Shown here one piece after another: positions 3 through 34,782 of a stretch of 38,193 nt of DNA. Origin of the DNA: a virus (taxonomy: Duplodnaviria; Heunggongvirae; Uroviricota; Caudoviricetes); the IMG/VR virus record IMGVR_UViG_3300048586_000134, positions 89,703-127,895 of that record, one strand, 5' to 3'. The notes beneath the pieces were generated by a model. That model saw only the letters and a list, made by a program, of their open reading frames with translations. It made no database searches and had not been told where the DNA came from. Made by a program: the position numbers and the translations under genes. Each line of letters starts with the position of its first letter. The stretch's first letter is position 1.

Positions 3-989
3 TTGGCAGCGGTTGAGGCCGTCAAGCGTTCGACCGACACCAACGAGATTATCTCCCTGATCAATCAGTATGGACTTCCTCGGGAAGTTCTGCCGACTCA
101 GGCGTTGAATGATCCGAAGGTGTGGGAGGCGCTCCTTTACGCAGGTAAGGGAATGCCGCTGACGGCGCTGGTTCGAAACCTCGGTACGATGTCCAAGATC
201 GGTCTGCTCACGCAGGGTTCGGATGCGTCTCGCTACGTGCTTGACCGTCTGGACGATCAGGATGGACTGCTCAAGTCGAGGATTCACCCAATCGATCTTC
301 TCAAGGCAAAGATGGTGTACGCAAACGGTCAGGGTCTCAAGTCGTCCGCGACGTGGACTCCTGTCCAGCCAGTTGTATACGTGCTTGAGACAGCGTTCTA
401 CAAGTCCTTCGGGAATGTAGAGCCGACCAACAAGCGTCTCTGCCTTGCGCTCGACGTTTCGGGATCGATGACTTCTGGTGAGCGCACTGGCTCATTCGCG
501 TGGTACGGCGCAGGCCGTGAGCCACTTGCGGGTGTTCCAGGGCTGTCTCCACGCATCGCTTCAGGCGCTCTGGCGCTGATTACGGCTCGTACGGAAAGGG
601 ACTACGAAATCTACGGATTTACGACGAACTATCGTCAGCTTAACATCAGCGGCCACGACTCGCTTGAGACGGTGCTGAAGAAGATCAGCGACCTTCCATT
701 CGGCGGAACCGATTGTGCGTTGCCGTTCCGAGAGGCACAGCGACAGAACAAGAAGTTCGATGCCTTTATCGTCTACACGGACTCCGAAACGGGTGGAGGT
801 AACCCTTCTGCCGCGCTTCGCCAGTACCGTGCATCGTCGGGAATCCATGATGCGAAGCTCATCGTGAACGCGATGGAAGCTAACAACTTCTCAATCGCTG
901 ATCCGAGAGACCGTAACATGCTTGACGTGGTTGGATTCGACACGGCTGCACCGCAGATCATGTCTGAGTTCATTCGAGGGGGTATCTAA
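3..989 (+). CDS. rsr: Ro60/TROVE-domain RNA-binding protein (Rsr), 5' part outside window
   Basis: TROVE C-terminus (MPLTALVRNLG, RIHP) then vWA MIDAS DVSGSM, VYTDSET and IADPRDRNMLDVVGFD, typical of Ro60 orthologs. Confidence 0.95.
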   Translation: MAAVEAVKRSTDTNEIISLINQYGLPREVLPTQALNDPKVWEALLYAGKGMPLTALVRNLGTMSKIGLLTQGSDASRYVLDRLDDQDGLLKSRIHPIDLLKAKMVYANGQGLKSSATWTPVQPVVYVLETAFYKSFGNVEPTNKRLCLALDVSGSMTSGERTGSFAWYGAGREPLAGVPGLSPRIASGALALITARTERDYEIYGFTTNYRQLNISGHDSLETVLKKISDLPFGGTDCALPFREAQRQNKKFDAFIVYTDSETGGGNPSAALRQYRASSGIHDAKLIVNAMEANNFSIADPRDRNMLDVVGFDTAAPQIMSEFIRGGI

Positions 990-6539: not shown

Positions 6540-6577
6540 TGTCGCCAAAATCAAACGTATCGCATATGATAGTATGT
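6540..6577 (+). promoter_or_regulatory. Repeated sigma70-like promoter, copy 1
   Basis: TCGCCA 6542-6547, 17 nt, TATGAT 6565-6570; same motif at 10993 and 16734. Confidence 0.8.
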
Positions 6578-6659: not shown

Positions 6660-6734
6660 GGTGGGTGTAGCCTAATGGTAAGGCGAACGGCTGTGAACCG
6701 TGCTATTCGAGTTCGATCCTCGACATTCACCCCA
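6660..6734 (+). tRNA. tRNA-His(GTG)
   Basis: G-1:C73, GTG 6693-6695, encoded CCA. Confidence 0.93.
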
Positions 6735-7339: not shown

Positions 7340-7490
7340 GAGCATAAGCCGACCTTCAATCGTTATCATCCCCACCAAGGAGAGCCACGACTCTCCACTT
7401 GGGGACGAGGGGTTCGACTCCCCCGTATAGCGACGGTTCGCATGTTGGCAGACATCCAACGTGTGCGGTTTTAGGACTTATTGCTTGCTC
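7340..7490 (+). ncRNA. Y RNA-like #2
   Basis: AAGC[C]GA/TTGCTT; CCTtcAATCG/CGGTTttAGG; CGTTATC; internal T-arm GGGG-TTCGACT-CCCC 7409-7423. Confidence 0.82.
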
Positions 7491-10112: not shown

Positions 10113-10114
10113 CT

Positions 10115-10248
10115 ATGTAAGCCGACTTGTGTGCGTTATCATCAAATTTTTGATTGTAGGTTCGAATCCTATCATCCTTCGGGATGTGGCCGAATGGCAA
10201 AGGCAGAAATTGGGGAAACCCATCTCGCACCTAACTTATTGCTTACAT
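10115..10248 (+). ncRNA. Y RNA-like #4 (YrlA-type)
   Basis: ATGTAAGC[C]GA/TTGCTTACAT; GTGCG/CGCAC; T arm GTAGG-TTCGAAT-CCTAT, CATCC-TTCG-GGATG, D arm GCC-GAATGGCAAA-GGC. Confidence 0.9.
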
Positions 10249-10862: not shown

Positions 10863-10983
10863 TACAAGCCGTTTGATGTGGGTTACCAGCATTGAACTTT
10901 TAATTCAAAGAATGCGGGTATCCAATCCCGCCATGCGAAAGCATGTAGCTAAAAACCTTCCCATGTCGCTCTTTGCTTGTGTG
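10863..10983 (+). ncRNA. Y RNA-like #5 (Lys-UUU anticodon-like arm)
   Basis: TACAAGC[C]G/TTGCTTGTG; GATGTGGG/CCCATGTC; TTGAA-CTTTTAA-TTCAA, T-like and GAAA-capped hairpins; T-tract. Confidence 0.85.
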
Positions 10984-10992
10984 CTTTTTCAA

Positions 10993-11030
10993 TGTCGCCA
11001 AAAACGCTACTACCGCATATGATAGTGTGT
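10993..11030 (+). promoter_or_regulatory. Repeated sigma70-like promoter, copy 2
   Basis: TCGCCA 10995-11000, 17 nt, TATGAT 11018-11023. Confidence 0.8.
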
Positions 11031-11032
11031 GA

Positions 11033-11105
11033 GGGGGTGACTGGCATGCCGAGCACTACAGGATTGTGGTCCTCGGAAACGCGGGTTCGAATCCCGCCAC
11101 CTCCA
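11033..11105 (+). ncRNA. tmRNA-like tRNA-like domain without mRNA domain
   Basis: GGGGGTG/CACCTCC with G3-U70 and A73, stemless D loop, CCGAG/CTCGG helix closed by a short hairpin, ACGCGGGTTCGAATCCCGCC. Confidence 0.72.
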
Positions 11106-11143: not shown

Positions 11144-11353
11144 ATGCGGAAAGCAGGAAAAGTTACGCTCGTTGCGTTGATGTCGTTGGTATCGATTGGT
11201 TTGACGAATGTTGTTGATGTGAGTGCACACAGTACTGAGTATCGGTGCTATAATGGGTACTACCAGAAACGAACGGCAACGACAGGAGTGGCGAACGGAG
11301 CAAATCACTGGCACGTATGGAGTCCGTGGTATAACATTTCATACGGTTGCTAG
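11144..11353 (+). CDS. Small secreted peptide A
   Basis: AAGGAGG RBS; signal peptide ending VSA-H; 41-aa mature part with 2 Cys. Confidence 0.75.
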   Translation: MRKAGKVTLVALMSLVSIGLTNVVDVSAHSTEYRCYNGYYQKRTATTGVANGANHWHVWSPWYNISYGC

Positions 11354-11374: not shown

Positions 11375-11620
11375 ATGCGAAGAATTCGAAACTTCTTTGT
11401 GGCAATTGTCGCAGCGGTGATGCTGGTTATCGGAGGTTTGGCAGTTACGACTCCTGACTCCGCTTCAGCGCATACGTATGTAGCAGGAGTCAGTTGCGGA
11501 TCGAGCGTCAGTCCGTCGAGCGGACAGATCAAGATCGGCTATCACTATGGCAGTGAGCCGTGGCATCGCTTTTATTGGCGAACGATGACGGCTGGTGAAT
11601 ACTGGACATATTGTTGGTAA
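11375..11620 (+). CDS. Small secreted peptide B
   Basis: Signal peptide ending ASA-H; 49-aa mature part with 2 Cys. Confidence 0.78.
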   Translation: MRRIRNFFVAIVAAVMLVIGGLAVTTPDSASAHTYVAGVSCGSSVSPSSGQIKIGYHYGSEPWHRFYWRTMTAGEYWTYCW

Positions 11621-12019: not shown

Positions 12020-12134
12020 AGTAAGCCGATTGGGTAAGCGTTATCTTATTACTTGAAACAATAAACGAGCAAGGTTCGAATCCTGCACTTGGGTTGGTAT
12101 CCCTAATTTCGCTTCCCGCCCTTTGCTTATCTTG
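12020..12134 (+). ncRNA. Y RNA-like #6
   Basis: TAAGC[C]GA/TTGCTTA; GGGtAAGCG/CGCTTCCC; TTATC; TTATT-aCTTGAAAc-AATAA and GGTTCGAATCC T arm. Confidence 0.85.
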
Positions 12135-15579: not shown

Positions 15580-15655
15580 GCATCCTTAGTTCATCTGGTA
15601 GAATCTCTCTTTGGTATAGAGAAGGTGCGCGGTTCGAGTCCGCGAGGGTGCTCCA
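15580..15655 (+). tRNA. tRNA-Thr(GGT)
   Basis: GGT 15613-15615, encoded CCA. Confidence 0.92.
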
Positions 15656-15692
15656 CATATCGAGTATTGTCATAAAAAGAAAAGGAGGGACA

Positions 15693-16694
15693 ATGACCGC
15701 AGACCAAAACTATATCAATCACGTCGTTCTCGTCATGGATGCGTCATCCTCGATGAGTCATCTGACGAACCAAGTCGTTCAGGTTGCTGACCAGCAGGCA
15801 GCATATCTGGCACAGCGTTCGAAAGAGCTTGATCAGGAGACACGCATGACGGTATACACTTTTAGTGACAACACGCAATGTGTGTATTATGACAAGGACG
15901 TGTTGCGTCTGCCGTCATTGAAAGGTAAGTATCGAGCTTCTGGTATGACCGCGCTCGTGGATGCCACGCTTCGCGCAGTCGAAGACCTTGAGAAAACCGC
16001 AACACTTTACGGGGATCACGCTTTCCTGATCTACGTTCTCACGGATGGACAGGAGAACGCCAGTGGTTCACATCCGTCCACACTGTCAAATAAGCTGTCT
16101 CGACTGCCCGACAACTGGACTGTGGCCGTGATGGTTCCTGACCAGAACGGTGTCTTCGAAGCCAAGAAGTTTGGTTTCGCGCCAAACAACATTGCTATTT
16201 GGGATACATCGGTCAAGGGTATTGGTGAAGTTTCCGAGACAATCAAGCGTGCCACTGATAATTACATGGTTGCGCGTGCCTCTGGACTTCGCTCTACGCA
16301 GAACATTTTCAGCCTTGATGCGTCGTCATTGCAACAAGCTGCACAAACTGGTGCACTGACTTCCTTGAAAGGTCATCAATACCGTTCTTACCCTGTCGAA
16401 CGCGAAGCGCAAATCTCCGCGTTTGTCGAGTGGAAGACAGGTATTCCGTACAAGATTGGTACTGCTTTCTATCAGCTTTCGAAGCGTGAGACCATTCAAC
16501 CGCAGAAGCAGATTGCTGTTCGTGACCGACGTACCTATGATTTGTACACTGGTCCGAATGCGAGACAGCTTCTCAAGCTGCCTGATTATGAGGTGCGGGT
16601 CTCGCCTATCGATCATCCTGACTACGATATCTTTGTTCAGTCCACAAGTGTGAATCGCAAGTTGGTTCCTGGGACTGAAGTTATTCTCTTGTAA
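15693..16694 (+). CDS. vWA-domain protein with C-terminal extra domain
   Basis: HVVLVMDASSSM (MIDAS DxSxS), GMTALVDA, VLTDGQEN; ATG 15693 behind AAGGAGG. Confidence 0.88.
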   Translation: MTADQNYINHVVLVMDASSSMSHLTNQVVQVADQQAAYLAQRSKELDQETRMTVYTFSDNTQCVYYDKDVLRLPSLKGKYRASGMTALVDATLRAVEDLEKTATLYGDHAFLIYVLTDGQENASGSHPSTLSNKLSRLPDNWTVAVMVPDQNGVFEAKKFGFAPNNIAIWDTSVKGIGEVSETIKRATDNYMVARASGLRSTQNIFSLDASSLQQAAQTGALTSLKGHQYRSYPVEREAQISAFVEWKTGIPYKIGTAFYQLSKRETIQPQKQIAVRDRRTYDLYTGPNARQLLKLPDYEVRVSPIDHPDYDIFVQSTSVNRKLVPGTEVILL

Positions 16695-16733: not shown

Positions 16734-16771
16734 TGTCGCCAAAATTCGATCAACCGCATATGATAGTGTGT
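16734..16771 (+). promoter_or_regulatory. Repeated sigma70-like promoter, copy 3
   Basis: TCGCCA 16736-16741, 17 nt, TATGAT 16759-16764. Confidence 0.8.
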
Positions 16772-17746: not shown

Positions 17747-17850
17747 GTCAAGCCGTTGGTAATCGGTTATCAGATTCAATCCTCTGGCAACTAGGGTAGT
17801 TCCTACTGCTTTGCGCGAAAGCGCTTTCCGATTCCGTTTTTGCTCGACTG
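17747..17850 (+). ncRNA. Y RNA-like #10
   Basis: GTCaAGC[C]G/TTGCTcGAC; AATCGG/CCGATT; GGTTATC; GCGC-GAAA-GCGC hairpin. Confidence 0.82.
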
Positions 17851-24957: not shown

Positions 24958-27900
24958 ATGGAGCACACAGATCGCGACCAATTAGCTCGTGCCTTGCACG
25001 GTGGACGTGCGACTGAAATTGAAGCAGCGCTTCGAGATGTTATTTCTGACTTCGTGCGTGATCAAACAGATGTGCGGCAGGCGGTCGCGGATGTCATCTA
25101 CCAAATGGGTATGGGTGATATCGATGCGGGTGTTATCTCGGTTAATGGAAGACTCGGAACGGTTGTCCTCACACAAGACGCCATTCCTGACGGCAACAAC
25201 GCCAAGCAGTTTTCCATTTTCGACAAGGCCAAGCTCGACTCTGTTGCAATTGGCGCAACCGCAAACCAGACCGACGCCTTTTTGGTTAGTCGGGCAAATC
25301 ATACAGGAACACAGTCCGCTGATACCATTGTCAACGGTGTAACCAACAAGGTACTTACGGCGGCTGAAAAAGCAAAACTCACCAGCATGAATGCAGGAGC
25401 AACGGTCAACTCCCCCGACAGCTTTCTCCTGAATCGGGCGAACCACACTGGAACGCAGTCGGCAGCAACCATCTCCGACCTTTCCAATGTGGTTCGTTCT
25501 ATTTTGGCTGATATCAGTATTGCGGTTTCGTCAGTTAACGGTCAGGGTGGCGATGTTGTCCTTGATCTTGATGACATTCTTGCTGGACAACTGAACAAGC
25601 ACTTCACAGAAGCCGAAAAAGTCAAGCTCCTCGGGATTGCTTCTGGTGCGACGGCGAACAACACGGACGCATTTCTTACGAATCGTGCGAATCACACAGG
25701 TACGCAATCGTCTACAACCATCGCGGATTTCGACACGGCAGTTGCCACGAATACGTTTGTCGCCGCAGCGACCGCTGCTCGACACACGCACGCGAACAAG
25801 TCTGTTCTTGATAATGTAACAGCGGCATACACAACCACTGAGCAAACAAAGCTCGCGGGTATTGCTCCAAACGCAACCGCGAACGCCTCGGATGCGCAGC
25901 TACGGGACCGCTCCACACATACAGGAACACAGGCTCCTGATACGATTGACGGTCTTGCGGAGACGATTCTCGACACCGTAGGGAACTCACTCATCGCTGG
26001 CGACAATATTAGCATCGTTTATGATGACGAGGGTGATACCGTCAACTTTGTGGTTTCCGCCACGAGTGGGGCAGTTTCGTCCGTCAACGGTCAAACGGGT
26101 ATCGTGGCGCTCGATCAGGACGACATTCCTGATGGAACAACTGCAAAGCAGTTCACTGCAACCGAGAAGACGAAACTCTCGGGAATTGCGACAGGAGCGA
26201 CAGCGAACTCGACTGACGCTCAGCTTCGAAGCCGCGCAACCCACACAGGAACGCAGACGGCATCGACCATCAGCGATTTCGATCTGGCGGTCTCTCAGAA
26301 CACGACCGTCCAAGCGAACACCACAGCACGCCACTCGCACACAAACAAGGCATTGCTTGACAGCTACAACCGCACCAACGAAGAGATTTCAAATGCGGTT
26401 GCGATTGCACACTCACACACAAACGGCGCAGTTCTCAACGCTACGACGGCTTCATTCACAACGGCACTCAAGACCAAGCTCGACGGTATCGCGACAGGGG
26501 CAACAGCAAACGACACTGATGCCAACCTTCGTAGCCGTGCGACACACACTGGCACGCAACCATCGACAACCATCTCGGACTTTGCAGAAGCAGTTCGGGA
26601 CACGATGGGAGTAGCGCTGGTCGCTGGTACGAACATCACAATTACTCCTGACGATGCTGCGAACACGATTACCATCAACTCAACCGCAAGTACGAGTGGT
26701 GAGGTAGAATCGGTTAACGGGCAGATAGGAATTGTCGTTCTCGATCAGGATGATATTCTTGACGGCACCACGGCTAAGCAATTCACGGCGACAGAGAAAA
26801 CGAAGCTCGCTGGAATCGCGACCGCCGCAACCGCAAACAGCACTGACGCGCAATTACGTGATCGTGCGACACATACGGGAACACAGCTTTCCTCCACGAT
26901 CAGCAACTTCCAGACAAGCGTTTCCGCGAATACGGACGTTGCTGCGAACACCACGGCTCGACACACGCACACCAATAAGACCATCCTCGATGCAGTCACC
27001 GCAGCCTTCACGACAGCGGATGAAACCAAGCTCGACGGTATCCAGGCTGGCGCTACAGTTAATGCGACCGATGCGGCTCTTCGTGACCGCACAACGCATA
27101 CAGGCACACAACCCTCCACGACGATTTCCGATTTCTCGGAAGCCGTACGTGACACGATGGGTCTGGCATTGGTGGCGGGTGATAACGTTACGATCACTCC
27201 TGATGACAACGCGAACACCATCACCATTACCTCGGTTGCGGGTGGACAGGTTGACTCGGTAAACGGACAGACTGGTAATGTGACGCTGACGCAGGATGAC
27301 GTGGCAGATGGACTGATTGCGAAGCAGTTCACGGTATCTGAGGAAACCAAGCTGGCAGGGATTGCCGCTGGTGCGACTGTTAATGATACCGATGCAGCGC
27401 TCCGTGACCGTTCGACGCACACAGGAACACAAACTGCATCAACGATCAGCGACTTCCAGACAACGGTAAGCGCGAATGCGACGGTAGCTGCAAATACGGC
27501 AGCGAGACACACGCATACGAACCAAGCCGTTCTCGACGCAACAACCGCATCCTTTACACTTGCTGACGAAAGCAAGCTCGACGGCGTTCAAGCAGGAGCT
27601 ACCGCAAACGCGTCAGATTCGTCTCTAAGGGATCGAAGTACCCACACAGGTACGCAGACATCAAATACGATTTCTGACCTCTCTGAGACGATCCTAGAGC
27701 GCGTGGGAGGCATCCTACAAGCAGGTGCCAATGTTACCCTGACGCCAAACACCGAAACAGACACCATTACCATTGCCGCAATTGTCGAAAGTGGTATGGG
27801 TGAGGTTAATTCGGTCAATGGTGCTACGGGTGTTGTTACCCTCGACACCGACGACATTCCAAGCGGTACAGTTACGTCACAGTACACGAACACCGAGAAG

Positions 27901-30900
27901 ACAAAGCTCGCAGGTATCCAGAGTGGTGCAACCGCGAATGCAACCGATGCTCAACTACGTGATCGTAGTACGCATACGGGAACGCAATTGGCGTCCACCA
28001 TTTCTGACTTCCAGACGGCGGTTTCCGCCAACGCCGATCTAGTGGCTCTGGTTGGTCATGACCACGACGCGGACTATGCCGCACTCGTTCACGACCACGA
28101 TGGGCGCTACTACACAGAGACGGAAGTTAACACGCTCCTGACTGGAAAATCAGACACAACTCACAATCATGACGCCGAGTACGCGACAATTGGTCACGAT
28201 CACGATCTTGACTATGCGTTGATTGCGCACGGTCATGTTATCGCTGATGTAACTGGACTCCAAACCGCACTCGACGGAAAAGCAGCAACCACTCATAATC
28301 ACGATCTGACGTATGCACCGATTGTGCACACGCACGACGAGTATGCGACGGATGCTGATTTGACGGCTGGTTTGGCAACAAAGTCAAATACGACGCATAT
28401 CCATGACGACCGCTACTACACAGAAACGGAAGTTGATGATGCGCTTGTTTTGAAAGCAAATGCTGATCACACACACGCCGATCTGGTTACGGATGCTGAG
28501 TTTGCAACGGCTCTAGCGGGAAAGAGTGACACAACCCACAATCACGATACTGTGTACGCGGCTCTTAGCCACGGACATGTTATTGCTGATGTTACGGGTT
28601 TGCAGGCGGCTCTCGATGCGAAGGCCGCAGCAGGACACAACCACGATTCGGCTTATGCCGCCCTTGTTCATGGTCACGTTATCGGAGACGTTACAGGTCT
28701 TCAGACGGCGTTGGATGGTAAGGCTTCAACATCGCACAATCACGATCTGGTTTACTCCGCAATCGGACACACGCATAGCGATCTGGTTACGGACGCGGAA
28801 CTGGCAACCGCACTTTCGGGTAAGGCTGATACAGTTCACGATCACGACACGCGGTACTATACTGAAACCGAAACGGACACGTTGCTTGCGGGTAAAGCGA
28901 ATACCGTGCATACGCACGACGACCGATACTTTACTGAATCGGAAGTAACGACCTTACTAGCTGGCAAGAGTGACACGACACACAACCACGATGCAGCGTA
29001 TGCGGTTATTGGACACAATCATGACAGTGCCTATGCAAGTATAACACACGATCACGACACCGACTATGCCGCGCTCGTACATGATCATGATGGTCGCTAC
29101 TATACGGAAACAGAAGTTGATGACGCGCTCGTGCTGAAAGCTGACGCGGATCATTTGCACACAGGAGTCTATGCCCCTGTTGCGCATGACCACGACCTTG
29201 ATTATGCAGCTATCGGACATCTTCACGATGACCGCTACTTTACTGAAACCGAGGTAACGGACGCGCTCGCCGCAAAAGCAAATGTAGCACACATGCACGC
29301 CATTGCGGATACAACGGGACTTCAGGCCGCACTAGATGGTAAAGCGGCAACCGTCCATAACCACGACGCGGCATACGCTGCTCTTGTGCATGGTCATGCT
29401 ATTACCGACGTAACTGGTCTACAGACGGCTCTTGATGGAAAGGCTGCAACAGGACACGATCACGATCTGGACTACGCAGCAATCGATCATACACACGCTG
29501 ATCTGGTAACAGATGGTGAGTTTGCGACAGCGCTTGCAGGAAAGTCCGATATAGCGCACACGCATGACGGTCGATATTACACCGAGACAGAAGTTGATAC
29601 CTTCCTGGCTGGCAAGTCTGATACGACGCATAATCACGATGCCGCATATGCGGCTCTTGGTCACAACCATGACGCCGACTACGCGGACATTGCGCACAAT
29701 CACGACCTAGACTATGCGGATATTGCCCACCTCCACGACGGTCGTTATTACACAGAGACCGAAATTGATACGGCGTTGGCGCTGAAGTCAGATACTACAC
29801 ATAATCACGCTGGCGTCTATGCACCGACTGTCCACGATCATGACTCACGTTATTACACGGAGACGGAAATTGATACGGCTCTAGCTGGTAAAGCAAACAC
29901 AACGCACGCGCACGCCATTGCGGATGTGACCAATTTGCAGTCCAGTCTTGACGGTAAAGCAAGCAGCACGCATAACCACGATCTTGTGTATGCGGCTATC
30001 GGCCACAACCACGATGCGGCATACTCCGCACTTGGTCACAATCACGATGATCGCTACTTTACGGAATCCGAAGTCACAACCGCTCTGGCAGGGAAGTCAG
30101 ATACGGGCCACACGCACACAGCGGCCAATGTTACCGACTTCAACACGGCGGCGGATGCTCGCATTACTGCTCAGAAGGGTGTCGCGAGCGGACTGGCAAC
30201 GCTTGACGGTTCTGGTAAGATTCCAACGACGCAGATTCCTCCGATTGCGATGACTGACGTTTCGGTTGTGGCGTCTCAGGCGGCACAATTGGCACTGACC
30301 TCGCAAGAGGGTGACGTTGTTATTCGAACCGACCTCAATCGCACCTACATTCACAACGGCGGCAGCGCGGGGACAATGGCCGATTGGACTGAAATGGCGA
30401 CTCCAACCGATGTCGTTCAGAGCGTCAATGGTCAGACTGGCGTTGTCACCCTGACGACGACCAATGTGAATGAGGGAACCAACCTTTACTACACCGAAGC
30501 AAGAGTCAACGCCAACACGAATGTCGCTGCGAATACGTCTGCACGTCACTCGCACAGCAACAAGGCAACTCTTGACGCGGTGACAGCGGCGTTCACGACG
30601 GCGCTGAATACGAAGCTGACTGGAATCGAGACAGGAGCGGATGTCACGGACGCTGCGAATGTCGATGCCGCAGGAGCGGTCATGAATACGGATACCACGA
30701 CAGCAGCAATGCAGTTCGTGGTTGATGAAGACAGCATGACCTCCAATAGCGCAACCAAGGTTCCAACCCAGCAGAGTGTCAAGGCGTATGTGGACACAGG
30801 ACTTGCAACGAAAGCAAGCAGCACGCACAACCATGATGCGACGTATGCAGCGCTCGTGCATGATCACGATAGCCGTTACTACACCGAGACGGAGATTGAC

Positions 30901-33900
30901 ACGGCACTCGCTGGAAAAGCGAATACCGCGCACGACCACGATACTCGATACTACACCGAAACCGAAGTCGATACCCTGCTTGCTGATAAGAGTAACACAA
31001 CTCACAATCACGACGCAAGCTACGCGCCACTGGTTCACAACCATGACACGCTGTACTACACCGAGTCGGAAGTTGACACCCTGCTGGCTGGAAAGTCCGC
31101 GACGAGTCACACACACGTCACCGCTGACGTAACGGGACTCGATACGGCTCTGGCAGGTAAGGCTGCTTCAAGCCACACGCACCATGTCAATGATCTGACC
31201 GCGACAGGAACGAAGTCTACGACGACCTTCCTCCGAGGTGACAACACCTGGGCGACTCCGCCGAACACAACCTATGCGGTTCCGACGCAAGCAGAAGCAG
31301 AAGCGGGTACGGCAACGACTGGACGCGCATTCAGCGCTCAGCGCGTCAATCAGGCGATTCAGGCGTTGGCTCCTGTTAAGGCTGCTGATCTGGCAACCAA
31401 GGCGAATGTGTCGCACACGCATGTCATCGGAGACACGACTGGCCTTCAGGCGGCTCTTGACGGTAAGGCAAGTACGACACACAATCACGATGCGACCTAT
31501 GCGGCTCTTGCACATACCCATGCTATCGCAGATACAACGGGATTGCAAGCGGCTCTGGATGGGAAGGCGTCAACAACACATAACCACGACGCGGCATACG
31601 CGGCGATTGGTCATAACCATGATGCTGCTTATGCGGCTCTCGTCCATGACCATGACACACGCTATTACACCGAGACAGAGGTTGATACCCTTCTTGGAGG
31701 AAAAGCGAACAGTTCGCACACGCACGCAATCTCGGATGTGACAAACTACCGTTCCGAAATCTGGAACGCGATGTCACACACCTCGCAACCAGCCGAAACC
31801 GAAATAGGTTCGGGAGCGGATGCGGGTACGGCGACTGCAAGCGTGGCGATTGGTAACAACGCGCAAACGCTTGAGGCAAACTCCGTTGCAATCGGTCAGT
31901 TTGCTGCTGCACACGGCGAAAGCTCGACTGTCATTGGTGATCTGGCGTATGCAATGGGTGACCGTGGCTTTGCGATTGGAGCAAACGCTGAAGCCGACAA
32001 TGCTGATGAAGGTGTTCTGAGAGCAAACTCGGTAAAGATTCAGCGGTCGAACGGAACGGGAGCAACGACGCTCAATGTGGCGGCTCCTGATGGTACGGCG
32101 AAGGTTCTTGGCATCGGCAATGATAACATTCCGACGATCAATGGCGTTGCACTCTCCATCCCGCACAACCATGACGCGACCTATGCGGCGATCAGTCACA
32201 CGCATGTTGCAGCGAACATTACCGACTTCGACACTGAGGTGTCCAACAACACCGACGTGACAGCAAATACGGCGGCTCGTCACAGTCATGCAAATAAGGC
32301 GCTTCTCGATACGTACGCACAAACAGAAGTCAATCTGGCAGATGCCGTAGCCAAGAAGCACAGTCACAGCAATCAGGCCGTACTTGACGCAACGACTGCT
32401 TCGTATACAACAGCGCTCAACACCAAGCTCTCTGGCATCGAAGCACTCGCTGATGTAACTGACGCAGCAAACGTAGACGCTGCTGGCGCGGTCATGAACT
32501 CCGACACCACAACTGCTTCAATGTCGTTTGTGGTTGACGAAGATGCAATGACTTCGAATAGTGCCACAAAGGTGCCGACGCAACAAAGTGTGAAAGCGTA
32601 TGTCGATACGGGATTGAGCGGAAAGGCGAACACGTCGCACACGCACACCGCAGCGAACATTACGGATTTCAGCACGGCGGCAGATGCACGAATTACGGCA
32701 CAAAAAGGTAATGCGAGTGGTCTGGCTACCCTGGATGCTGGCGGCAAGATTCCATCGACACAGCTTCCTGCTATCGGTCTCACGGATGTCAATGTTGTCG
32801 CGTCTCAGGCAGCGCAGCTTGCATTAACGGCCCAAGAGGGTGACGTTGCGATCCGCTCTGACCTGAACCGCAGCTATATCCACAATGGCGGTACAGCGGG
32901 AACTATGGCTGACTGGACCGAACTGGCAACGCCGACTGACGCAGTACAAAGCGTCAACGGTCAGACAGGTGCGGTTTCACTTACCACGACAAACATCAAT
33001 GAAGGTACGAATCTCTACTACACCGAGGCTCGTGTCAATGCGAATACGAATGTTGCGGCGAACACGGCTGCACGACACAGCCACTCCAACAAGGCTCTTC
33101 TTGATACGTACACACAGACCGAGGCAAACCTCGCGGATGCGGTATCCAAGAAGCACAGTCACGCAAATCAGGCAACGCTCGATGCGACAACCGCTTCCTA
33201 CACGACAGCACTCAACACGAAGCTGACAGGTATTGAAGCACTCGCTGATGTGACGGATGCGGCGAATGTTGATGCGGCTGGTGCAGTTATGAATTCGGAC
33301 ACGACAACGGCAAGTATGTCGTTTGTTGTGAATGAAAACAACATGGTGTCGAATAGTACGACCAAGGTTCCAACGCAGGCAAGCGTCAAGAGTTATGTCG
33401 ATACTGGTCTGGCTGGTAAGGCGGCAAGCTCGCACTCACACGCTATCTCGGACGTGACAAACTTACAGACAACGCTCGATGGTAAGGCGTCCTCGACACA
33501 TAACCATGATGCAACGTATGCGGCTCTGTCGCACACACACACGGCAGCGAATGTTACTGATTTTGCTGAGGTTGTCCGAGATACGATGGGAACCGCGCTC
33601 GTTGCGGGTTCGAACATCACGATTACACCAAATGATGTAGGCGATACCATTACGATTGCTGCTACGTCAACTGCTCCTGTAACGTCGGTTAACACCCTCA
33701 CTGGTGCGGTCACGCTTACGCAAGATAACATCGGTGATGGTACAACATACAAACAATACTCGCAAACCGAGAAGAGTAAGCTCGCTGGCATCGAAGCTGG
33801 TGCAGACGTTACTGACGCGGCAAATGTCGATGCTGCTGGCGCGGTAATGAATTCGGATACTTCGACGGCTTCTATGTCCTTTGTCATTGACGAAGACGCG

Positions 33901-34782
33901 ATGACAACGAATACCGCGACCAAGGTGCCGACACAACAGAGCGTGAAAGCCTACGTTGACGCGGGGCTTGCAACGAAGGCGGCGACAAGCCATAATCACG
34001 ATGCAACCTACGCAGCGCTTTCGCACACGCACGATGACCGCTACTACACTGAAAGTGAAATGGCGACTCTGTTGAACGCGAAAGCAGGATTGGTTCACAC
34101 GCATGCGGCATCTGAGCTTACAGCAACAGGTACGCGAGACGCAACGACATTTCTCCGTGGTGACAACACATGGCAAGTGCCTCCTCTTGCAACCCATACG
34201 CACGATGATCGATATTATACTGAGACTGAGATTAACTCTCAGATGTCAGGCAAGGCAAACTCAGTACACAGTCACGCCGCAGTCGATGTCATCGACTTCG
34301 CTGAAACCGTTCGTGATACAATGGGTGCAGCCCTTGTTGGTGGTACGGGTATCACGGTTACGCCAAACGACGTTGGAGATACCATTACCATTACGAATAA
34401 CGCCTCGGTGGTGACTGTCTGCGATTCTGCAAGTGCTGCATCGACAGCAAGTACGACAAGCACGACAGTCTATGCTACAGCGTTATCTACGAACATCACA
34501 CTTCCTGCTGGTACGTGGACGGTGAATGCTATTGGCGGTCTTCTCTGTACACACAGCGCAAGTGGTACTGTGAACGTGCAAACTGTTATTGCTGGTGATG
34601 CAGGAACAGCACGCGCAATCAGCGGTGTTTCAAGTTCATCTCCAAATATGGTGGTAGACAACGCTGTTAAGGGAGGCCAGTCTGGAACAATTACCTGTCT
34701 CATTCAGTACAAGTCCAGCACGGCTGGAACAACTGCTGCGAAGAACCCTTGGATTACCATTATTGCGGAGAGAACCGCGTAA
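24958..34782 (+). CDS. Giant (3274 aa) His-rich repetitive fibre protein, tail fibre/whisker-like
   Basis: Many HxHD, HTHDDRYYTETE, RANHTGTQ, SVNGQTG and HxIADVTGLQxALDGKA (phage tail repeat-like) units; YadA-head-like xAIG repeats at about 31810-32010. Confidence 0.85.
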   Translation: MEHTDRDQLARALHGGRATEIEAALRDVISDFVRDQTDVRQAVADVIYQMGMGDIDAGVISVNGRLGTVVLTQDAIPDGNNAKQFSIFDKAKLDSVAIGATANQTDAFLVSRANHTGTQSADTIVNGVTNKVLTAAEKAKLTSMNAGATVNSPDSFLLNRANHTGTQSAATISDLSNVVRSILADISIAVSSVNGQGGDVVLDLDDILAGQLNKHFTEAEKVKLLGIASGATANNTDAFLTNRANHTGTQSSTTIADFDTAVATNTFVAAATAARHTHANKSVLDNVTAAYTTTEQTKLAGIAPNATANASDAQLRDRSTHTGTQAPDTIDGLAETILDTVGNSLIAGDNISIVYDDEGDTVNFVVSATSGAVSSVNGQTGIVALDQDDIPDGTTAKQFTATEKTKLSGIATGATANSTDAQLRSRATHTGTQTASTISDFDLAVSQNTTVQANTTARHSHTNKALLDSYNRTNEEISNAVAIAHSHTNGAVLNATTASFTTALKTKLDGIATGATANDTDANLRSRATHTGTQPSTTISDFAEAVRDTMGVALVAGTNITITPDDAANTITINSTASTSGEVESVNGQIGIVVLDQDDILDGTTAKQFTATEKTKLAGIATAATANSTDAQLRDRATHTGTQLSSTISNFQTSVSANTDVAANTTARHTHTNKTILDAVTAAFTTADETKLDGIQAGATVNATDAALRDRTTHTGTQPSTTISDFSEAVRDTMGLALVAGDNVTITPDDNANTITITSVAGGQVDSVNGQTGNVTLTQDDVADGLIAKQFTVSEETKLAGIAAGATVNDTDAALRDRSTHTGTQTASTISDFQTTVSANATVAANTAARHTHTNQAVLDATTASFTLADESKLDGVQAGATANASDSSLRDRSTHTGTQTSNTISDLSETILERVGGILQAGANVTLTPNTETDTITIAAIVESGMGEVNSVNGATGVVTLDTDDIPSGTVTSQYTNTEKTKLAGIQSGATANATDAQLRDRSTHTGTQLASTISDFQTAVSANADLVALVGHDHDADYAALVHDHDGRYYTETEVNTLLTGKSDTTHNHDAEYATIGHDHDLDYALIAHGHVIADVTGLQTALDGKAATTHNHDLTYAPIVHTHDEYATDADLTAGLATKSNTTHIHDDRYYTETEVDDALVLKANADHTHADLVTDAEFATALAGKSDTTHNHDTVYAALSHGHVIADVTGLQAALDAKAAAGHNHDSAYAALVHGHVIGDVTGLQTALDGKASTSHNHDLVYSAIGHTHSDLVTDAELATALSGKADTVHDHDTRYYTETETDTLLAGKANTVHTHDDRYFTESEVTTLLAGKSDTTHNHDAAYAVIGHNHDSAYASITHDHDTDYAALVHDHDGRYYTETEVDDALVLKADADHLHTGVYAPVAHDHDLDYAAIGHLHDDRYFTETEVTDALAAKANVAHMHAIADTTGLQAALDGKAATVHNHDAAYAALVHGHAITDVTGLQTALDGKAATGHDHDLDYAAIDHTHADLVTDGEFATALAGKSDIAHTHDGRYYTETEVDTFLAGKSDTTHNHDAAYAALGHNHDADYADIAHNHDLDYADIAHLHDGRYYTETEIDTALALKSDTTHNHAGVYAPTVHDHDSRYYTETEIDTALAGKANTTHAHAIADVTNLQSSLDGKASSTHNHDLVYAAIGHNHDAAYSALGHNHDDRYFTESEVTTALAGKSDTGHTHTAANVTDFNTAADARITAQKGVASGLATLDGSGKIPTTQIPPIAMTDVSVVASQAAQLALTSQEGDVVIRTDLNRTYIHNGGSAGTMADWTEMATPTDVVQSVNGQTGVVTLTTTNVNEGTNLYYTEARVNANTNVAANTSARHSHSNKATLDAVTAAFTTALNTKLTGIETGADVTDAANVDAAGAVMNTDTTTAAMQFVVDEDSMTSNSATKVPTQQSVKAYVDTGLATKASSTHNHDATYAALVHDHDSRYYTETEIDTALAGKANTAHDHDTRYYTETEVDTLLADKSNTTHNHDASYAPLVHNHDTLYYTESEVDTLLAGKSATSHTHVTADVTGLDTALAGKAASSHTHHVNDLTATGTKSTTTFLRGDNTWATPPNTTYAVPTQAEAEAGTATTGRAFSAQRVNQAIQALAPVKAADLATKANVSHTHVIGDTTGLQAALDGKASTTHNHDATYAALAHTHAIADTTGLQAALDGKASTTHNHDAAYAAIGHNHDAAYAALVHDHDTRYYTETEVDTLLGGKANSSHTHAISDVTNYRSEIWNAMSHTSQPAETEIGSGADAGTATASVAIGNNAQTLEANSVAIGQFAAAHGESSTVIGDLAYAMGDRGFAIGANAEADNADEGVLRANSVKIQRSNGTGATTLNVAAPDGTAKVLGIGNDNIPTINGVALSIPHNHDATYAAISHTHVAANITDFDTEVSNNTDVTANTAARHSHANKALLDTYAQTEVNLADAVAKKHSHSNQAVLDATTASYTTALNTKLSGIEALADVTDAANVDAAGAVMNSDTTTASMSFVVDEDAMTSNSATKVPTQQSVKAYVDTGLSGKANTSHTHTAANITDFSTAADARITAQKGNASGLATLDAGGKIPSTQLPAIGLTDVNVVASQAAQLALTAQEGDVAIRSDLNRSYIHNGGTAGTMADWTELATPTDAVQSVNGQTGAVSLTTTNINEGTNLYYTEARVNANTNVAANTAARHSHSNKALLDTYTQTEANLADAVSKKHSHANQATLDATTASYTTALNTKLTGIEALADVTDAANVDAAGAVMNSDTTTASMSFVVNENNMVSNSTTKVPTQASVKSYVDTGLAGKAASSHSHAISDVTNLQTTLDGKASSTHNHDATYAALSHTHTAANVTDFAEVVRDTMGTALVAGSNITITPNDVGDTITIAATSTAPVTSVNTLTGAVTLTQDNIGDGTTYKQYSQTEKSKLAGIEAGADVTDAANVDAAGAVMNSDTSTASMSFVIDEDAMTTNTATKVPTQQSVKAYVDAGLATKAATSHNHDATYAALSHTHDDRYYTESEMATLLNAKAGLVHTHAASELTATGTRDATTFLRGDNTWQVPPLATHTHDDRYYTETEINSQMSGKANSVHSHAAVDVIDFAETVRDTMGAALVGGTGITVTPNDVGDTITITNNASVVTVCDSASAASTASTTSTTVYATALSTNITLPAGTWTVNAIGGLLCTHSASGTVNVQTVIAGDAGTARAISGVSSSSPNMVVDNAVKGGQSGTITCLIQYKSSTAGTTAAKNPWITIIAERTA

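Follow-up and report, generated by a model that had tools for sequence, protein, structure and literature searches.

We show here that a 73-nt element encoded on the + strand of an uncultured phage of about 128 kb (window positions 11033-11105) is, in sequence and in structure, the tRNA-like domain (TLD) of tmRNA, present as a gene of its own without an mRNA-like domain. By analogy with TLD-only molecules studied elsewhere, this RNA probably interferes with host ribosome rescue and protein tagging, and the role we infer for it is that of a decoy. The element adds to a published kind, the TLD-only RNA of mycobacteriophage DS6A described in 2009-2014, and is not a new kind. Because RNAs of this kind have already been published and are common in phages, the finding is less novel than the first-pass annotation of this DNA had implied, and its value lies in confirmation and census rather than in discovery. 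It nevertheless supplies a well-placed example, with its own promoter, inside a tRNA array and in a large phage of the virulent type.

The window, by which we mean the whole 38,193-nt stretch of DNA that was analysed, is the final 38 kb of a 127,895-bp IMG/VR virus record (positions 89703-127895) with direct terminal repeats, and it carries 40 tRNA genes on the + strand according to ARAGORN. A Ro60 homologue with TROVE and Ro60 vWA domains (window 3-989, the gene continuing past the window start) heads the tRNA array, and a second vWA protein is encoded within the array (15648-16694). Directly 3' of the array lies a single ORF of 3,274 aa (24958-34782), and the window further contains genes of the NadR/PnuC type and several for HNH endonucleases. 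Besides tRNA, no other Rfam family reached the gathering level in the window. As judged from one vWA protein, the nearest named relatives of the phage are the cluster C2 mycobacteriophages Myrna and Phabba (48-50% amino-acid identity), followed by large Streptomyces phages.

Structure and class of the 73-nt element

The element begins with the acceptor 5' strand GGGGGTG (11033-11039), which contributes G3 of the G3:U70 pair, and ends with the acceptor 3' strand CACCTCC (11098-11104), which contributes U70, and the discriminator A73 (11105); all seven acceptor positions pair, G3:U70 included. The 5' strand is followed by an unpaired 9-nt D-loop analogue, ACTGGCATG (11040-11048), which in the RF00023 consensus alignment keeps the GG and lacks the usual UUCGAC. 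The whole mRNA-like domain is replaced by a 28-nt P2a-like helix with a capping hairpin (11049-11076), made up of a lower helix CCGAG/CTCGG, a C/C mismatch, an upper helix ACTACA/TGTGGT and a GGAT loop. A linker, AAAC (11077-11080), which has equivalents in the viral look-alikes described below, leads from this P2-like helix to the T stem, and the T arm GCGGG-TTCGAAT-CCCGC (11081-11097) is seen both in the fold and in the RF00023 alignment. The acceptor with G3-U70 and A73, the unpaired D loop and the P2-like helix were thus all found where the first-pass annotation had placed them. Its capping hairpin, given as ACTAC/GTGGT, is also present, except that the upper helix is longer by one A-U pair.

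The structure just described is the exact minimum-free-energy fold of the 73 nt (-35.0 kcal/mol, 53% of the ensemble), with a z-score of -3.0 and an equal or better energy in one of 200 shuffles. Neither an anticodon arm nor a tag reading frame is present in 11033-11105; the fold, the RF00023 alignment and ARAGORN, which calls nothing in this interval at default settings, agree with the earlier claim on this point. It is barely credible that the element is an aberrant decoding tRNA, for example one with a 'tRNA-His(gtg)' cloverleaf. Its 73 nt are the length of a tRNA and ARAGORN at 80% thresholds does draw such a cloverleaf, but in the forced structure the D stem is poor and two of the five anticodon-stem positions are mismatched, whereas the alternative hairpin is fully paired and belongs to the minimum-free-energy fold. 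Further points against a decoding role are that the phage already has a tRNA-His(gtg) at 6661, that G3:U70 is an alanine identity mark, and that the element falls below the cut-off of the tRNA model RF00005.

Covariance models assign the element to tmRNA. RF00023 matches it from end to end, aligning model positions 1-374 with 308 internal positions deleted and 10 nt in their place, and scores 46 bits (E 2.3e-18) in the genome search and 37.4 bits in a local search; the higher score is 1 bit under the Rfam gathering cut-off of 47 bits. Under RF00005 the element receives 26.5 bits, against a cut-off of 29 bits and a range of 31.7-68.6 bits for all 38 true tRNAs of the phage, and the phage's genuine tRNA-Ala receives only 17.8 bits under RF00023. 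Like tRNA-Ala, the element is 73 nt long and has a T arm and the alanine identity set of G3:U70 and A73, but the D stem, the anticodon arm and U8 are missing from it. Comparison with tmRNA models had been proposed together with the first reading, and the scores of the two models, along with ends near-identical to those of Acidimicrobiia-type tmRNAs, uphold the view that this is a tmRNA TLD without an mRNA-like domain. Genes of this sort fall into an annotation gap, being missed by standard tools: ARAGORN makes no call, and Rfam falls short by 1 bit.

The resume codon, tag frame and pseudoknots of canonical tmRNA are absent, and only 28 nt separate the D-loop analogue from the linker. ARAGORN and the Rfam models found no full-length or two-piece tmRNA elsewhere in the phage genome. 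Other candidate classes were considered and rejected. With the two-piece (permuted) tmRNA model RF04321, the match is confined to the T arm and the 3' strand of the acceptor (22.8 bits truncated; 17.7 bits, E 0.33), and downstream of the element, where a two-piece tmRNA would have a coding piece that opens with the 5' acceptor strand, there are a ribosome-binding site and small ORFs. When its threshold is lowered to 50%, ARAGORN draws an artefactual 'tmRNA' around the element. The reading as an attP-type remnant of a host ssrA was dropped, given that the 5' acceptor strand and the D-loop are present and that the genome has no tyrosine integrase. Nor is the element a YrlA-type Y RNA, since its topology is the opposite one, with an open acceptor that the two ends form, and the GNCGAAN0-1G motif is absent from the 73 nt.

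The two small ORFs directly 3' of the mini-tmRNA gene (11144-11353 and 11375-11620; 69 and 81 aa) each have a signal-peptide-like N-terminus (...SA followed by H), two cysteines and strong ribosome sites. Neither product had a match in Pfam or PHROG.

Promoter and 3' end

A 34-nt promoter-type repeat of the pattern TGTCGCCAAAA-N11-GCATATGATAGT lies on the + strand at 10993-11026, with a -35-like TGTCGCC and a -10 box TATGAT at 11018-11023, and a generic sigma-70 scan also calls TCGCCA-17-TATGAT at this place. The first base of the mini-tmRNA gene is the 10th nucleotide after TATGAT, in keeping with the spacing first reported for this promoter copy. The exact pattern occurs three times in the window and not once in 100 shuffles. 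When small variations are admitted (ATGTCGCC-N15-GCATATGATAGT), eight copies are found in the genome, on the + strand at genome position 88941 and window positions 6540, 10993 and 16734, and on the - strand at genome positions 68817, 61843, 50069 and 45117. The copy at 16734 serves tRNA-Gly(tcc) in the same register as the mini-tmRNA, the gene in both cases beginning at repeat start + 40, and the copy at 6540 stands directly before tRNA-Lys(ctt). One copy precedes the Ro60 gene, and other copies precede several leftward units.

CCA is not encoded in the element, whose tail reads A followed by CTG. Because most of the phage tRNAs are likewise without an encoded CCA (27 of 37, the remaining 10 having it) and six of them share the CTG tail, the mini-tmRNA resembles its tRNA neighbours at the 3' end; CTA, CCG and CTG tails are all common in this set. 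We found no CCA-adding enzyme in the phage genome, and the phage therefore depends on the host enzyme. Myrna, by contrast, encodes a CCA-adding enzyme (gp28).

Relatives in bacteria, phages and organelles

In species-representative bacterial genomes, the 3' 29-mer of the element followed by CCA is present in 98 stretches from many phyla. In one group among the 98, made up of MAGs of Acidimicrobiia and 'uncultured Actinomycetes', the 13 nt with which the element begins, GGGGGTGACTGGC, are found as well. In this Acidimicrobiia-type group the P2a 3' strand and linker read CTCGGAAGAC, compared with CTCGGAAAC in the phage. The match to full-length tmRNAs of Acidimicrobiia/Actinomycetota MAGs covers 13 nt at the 5' end and, the linker change aside, about 36 nt at the other end. 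Set beside a canonical tmRNA (RF00023) of the Acidimicrobiia type, the phage RNA has the same 13 nt at the 5' end, the same P2a 3' strand and the same T arm and acceptor 3' strand, with a 3' 29-mer that is identical but for the bacterial CCA and a linker that is slightly different. It lacks about 285 nt, in which the bacterial RNA has the remainder of P2, four pseudoknots, the resume codon and the tag ORF; its D-loop is also shorter, and no CCA is encoded. On the simplest reading of these sequences, a tmRNA was probably captured from an Actinomycetota (Acidimicrobiia-like) host and then lost about 285 nt from its interior. The near-identity of the RNA ends also provides a host clue for an uncultured phage, and hints at an Acidimicrobiia-type actinomycetote as its host; the clue is only a soft one, because the bacterial scan took exact 3' matches only.

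A phage RNA of the same kind, 'Mycobacterium phage DS6A (TLD only)', was listed by Hudson, Lau and Williams in 2014 (PMC4131195), and the 2025 tmRNA database paper repeats this case and adds CDS-less forms in mitochondria and two plastids (PMC11915505). The DS6A element has the identifiers tmID 11587 and Phage__Mycobacterium.9 on the tmRNA Website. We located it at JN698994 28478-28560, where the GenBank record leaves it unannotated, and obtained the same end-to-end alignment to RF00023 with a score of 43.2 bits, close to the 46 bits of the element described here. The two RNAs share an acceptor with G3:U70 and A73, an unpaired D-loop analogue, a hairpin-capped P2-like helix and a T arm; both lack a tag frame and an encoded CCA (the tails are CTA in DS6A and CTG here), and both are missed by routine annotation, in the GenBank record in the one case and by ARAGORN in the other. 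The DS6A element differs in being 80-83 nt long, in keeping a TCGAC motif in the D-loop and in its inner hairpin, GAAAACCGCACGCGG, whereas the present RNA has 73 nt, a 9-nt D-loop and a different hairpin. The settings differ as well: the DS6A gene stands alone among the protein genes of a 60-kb siphovirus, whereas the mini-tmRNA gene follows a tRNA-type promoter inside an array of 40 tRNA genes, in a phage of 128 kb that has terminal repeats. CDS-less organellar tmRNAs (those of jakobid and oomycete mitochondria, RF02544, and the ~65-bp forms of Mallomonadaceae plastids; PMC11915505) likewise consist of little beyond the TLD and have no tag frame. In their case a SmpB encoded in the nucleus is retained alongside the RNA, which presumably works for the organelle, whereas the phage RNA belongs to a virus without SmpB.

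We scanned IMG/VR with one degenerate pattern (GGGG..G, a base other than T, 37-67 nt, the T loop, N7 and CTCCA), which at least 118 stretches matched. The 80 loci examined of these at least 118 stretches contained at least 84 raw matches, and 58 of the at least 84 matches listed form a pair at each of the three acceptor positions not fixed by the pattern, compared with about 4 expected by chance. Ordinary tRNA-Ala genes, as called by ARAGORN, account for only five of the 80 loci examined, and at least 57 non-redundant look-alikes that are not tRNAs have the layout of acceptor, D-loop, hairpin, linker and T arm. Among the look-alikes listed, acceptor pairs 5:68 and 6:67 covary (GC, CG, AT and TA), and GAC, AAC, AGAC and AAAC occur as linkers. 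A short D-loop like that of the element, AATGGAATGC, is found in viral look-alikes, and three of them (L063, L064 and L072) combine the same acceptor as the element with a near-identical short D-loop of the GGNAWGC type.

In four cases (L045, L070, L084 and L085) the pattern match overlaps a full-length tmRNA call by ARAGORN. These four may be the 3' parts of longer genes: either ARAGORN has over-extended its calls, or they are tmRNAs in which an internal GGGG..G mimics a second 5' end.

No close relative conserving the element itself was found in the INPHARED and IMG/VR searches: the element region had no megablast or blastn match among INPHARED phages, and the exact 18-mer of the element's 5' end has no other copy in IMG/VR. 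The promoter-repeat pattern also has no copy in IMG/VR, which is why a conservation test had no close relative to draw on. On the nearest contig (G001, about 50% amino-acid identity in the vWA protein), the tRNA cluster includes a weak 64-nt candidate (106820-106883, - strand) that combines G3:U70 and A73 with a T arm and one hairpin. Its RF00023 score is 22.3 bits, and it folds no better than shuffles do (z -0.96); it may be a diverged counterpart and was left out of the evidence. There is no mini-tmRNA in mycobacteriophage Myrna, in which the best RF00023 match is an annotated tRNA-Thr.

These comparisons bear on whether the element could be a functionless, decaying relic, that is, a pseudogene of a captured tmRNA or a degenerated tRNA-Ala, which we consider very unlikely. 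Degenerate tRNA-like pieces (RF00005 25.0 and 20.2 bits) do lie nearby in the array, and there is no close relative that could reveal purifying selection on the phage copy. Against decay, all seven acceptor pairs, all five T-stem pairs and the 11 hairpin pairs are intact, and a copy of a promoter that is otherwise conserved stands before the gene in the register used for tRNA. The compact design is also seen in DS6A and, with compensatory changes, in at least 57 viral contigs.

Possible roles in host ribosome rescue

Trans-translation is essential or important in many bacteria, including mycobacteria, and a natural TLD-only tmRNA would be a ready-made inhibitor, or a tag-free variant, of this process. 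We favour, with somewhat better than even confidence, the reading that the phage produces a tag-less mini-tmRNA, likely captured from a host, which damps trans-translation by competing for SmpB and stalled ribosomes. The transcript would be processed in the same way as those of the tRNAs around it: RNase P would cut the 5' end, and the 3' end would be trimmed and given its CCA by the host enzyme. Host AlaRS would then charge it with alanine by way of G3:U70 and A73, which are enough for AlaRS recognition of minihelices, and the mini-tmRNA would bind SmpB and EF-Tu of the host. Lacking a resume codon, it would compete with host tmRNA for SmpB and stalled ribosomes, and this competition would lead to less trans-translation and less SsrA tagging during infection. 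A search for a phage smpB or a full ssrA had been suggested at the outset and turned up neither; the phage genome encodes no SmpB, RF-1/ArfB domain, CCA-adding enzyme or integrase.

Work on comparable molecules is consistent with such competition. As cited in PMC4131195, Mao et al. 2009 found that a similar TLD molecule, whether chargeable or not, strongly inhibits tmRNA, perhaps through SmpB titration, and tmRNA inhibition is what PMC4131195 and PMC11915505 relate of the DS6A TLD tested in E. coli. The engineered TLD constructs of Shimizu and Ueda 2006, as they are cited in PMC3895274, have the same design, a TLD closed by a short hairpin, and according to that source can be charged with alanine and, together with SmpB and EF-Tu, act as acceptors of peptidyl transfer in vitro; they are laboratory constructs, whereas the phage RNA is a natural gene. 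The predicted binding of SmpB is uncertain because the D-loop analogue is short and lacks the UUCGAC conserved in bacterial tmRNAs, and this feature is the main structural doubt about SmpB binding. It also counts against the decoy model that the phage itself needs ribosomes and yet would block their rescue.

Alternatively, and in our view rather improbably, the RNA could be a tag-free rescuer. An alanine-charged mini-tmRNA would, with host SmpB, enter stalled ribosomes and take over the nascent chain, the ribosomes would be freed by drop-off, Pth or another release route without a degradation tag being added, and phage proteins made from damaged or cleaved mRNAs would thereby be shielded from SsrA-directed proteolysis. 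The structural evidence from the fold and RF00023 fits this role as well as that of a decoy, and the peptidyl transfer to a TLD-only tmRNA in vitro, in the account cited by PMC3895274, argues in its favour. So do the CDS-less tmRNAs of jakobid and oomycete mitochondria, which are conserved together with an organelle-targeted SmpB and are thought to aid with incomplete mRNAs (PMC11915505). The phage, however, has no RF-1/ArfB domain to release the ribosome carrying a peptidyl-TLD, and the DS6A TLD is related in PMC4131195 and PMC11915505 to have given inhibition in E. coli, not rescue. From sequence alone the decoy and the tag-free rescuer are inseparable. Both functions had been offered in the first-pass annotation, and both have already been discussed for the DS6A RNA and for CDS-less organellar tmRNAs (PMC4131195, PMC11915505).

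A broader proposal, which we regard as doubtful, is that phage mini-tmRNAs form a large and essentially unannotated class of viral small RNAs that reprogram host ribosome rescue. The present member would have been carved from an Acidimicrobiia-type host tmRNA and, as the first product of a phage operon, would either stop SsrA tagging or, without tagging, rescue the ribosomes that have stalled on phage messages cut by host defence RNases. If true, the mini-tmRNA would be an RNA-based counter-defence, more than a mere competitor.

It is quite unlikely that the element is an alanine-type tRNA look-alike acting outside ribosome rescue, be it as a decoy or sponge for a nuclease or defence factor of the host with affinity for tRNA or tmRNA, or as a partner of the phage Ro60. 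In support of such a role, the phage encodes the Ro60 homologue at the start of the window, tRNA-like Y RNAs are ligands of Ro60 proteins from bacteria and phages (PMC4201824), and fragments of tRNA and tmRNA are found in association with a phage anti-CRISPR protein (PMC11662646). YrlA-type Y RNAs are, however, opposite in topology: their 5' and 3' ends form the Ro-binding stem and their acceptor-like stem is closed (PMC4201824), whereas the acceptor here is open and of the alanine type. The element also lies 10 kb from the Ro60 gene, and a better Y RNA candidate is the family in which a (T/C)AAGCCG...GTTAYC box is combined with orphan T arms. An Rfam search gave no match to a Y RNA adjoining the Ro60 gene.

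The (T/C)AAGCCG...GTTAYC box is conserved 3' of five tRNAs in the window (7340-7440, 10114-10200, 10863-10945, 12020-12100 and 17747-17830). In four of the five cases the box is followed by an orphan T-arm-like hairpin (at 7408, 10156, 10914 and 12069). Two orphan T-arm pieces near the mini-tmRNA gene are sub-threshold under RF00005 (25.0 and 20.2 bits), and two of the box-containing stretches fold well, with z-scores of -2.9 and -3.2.
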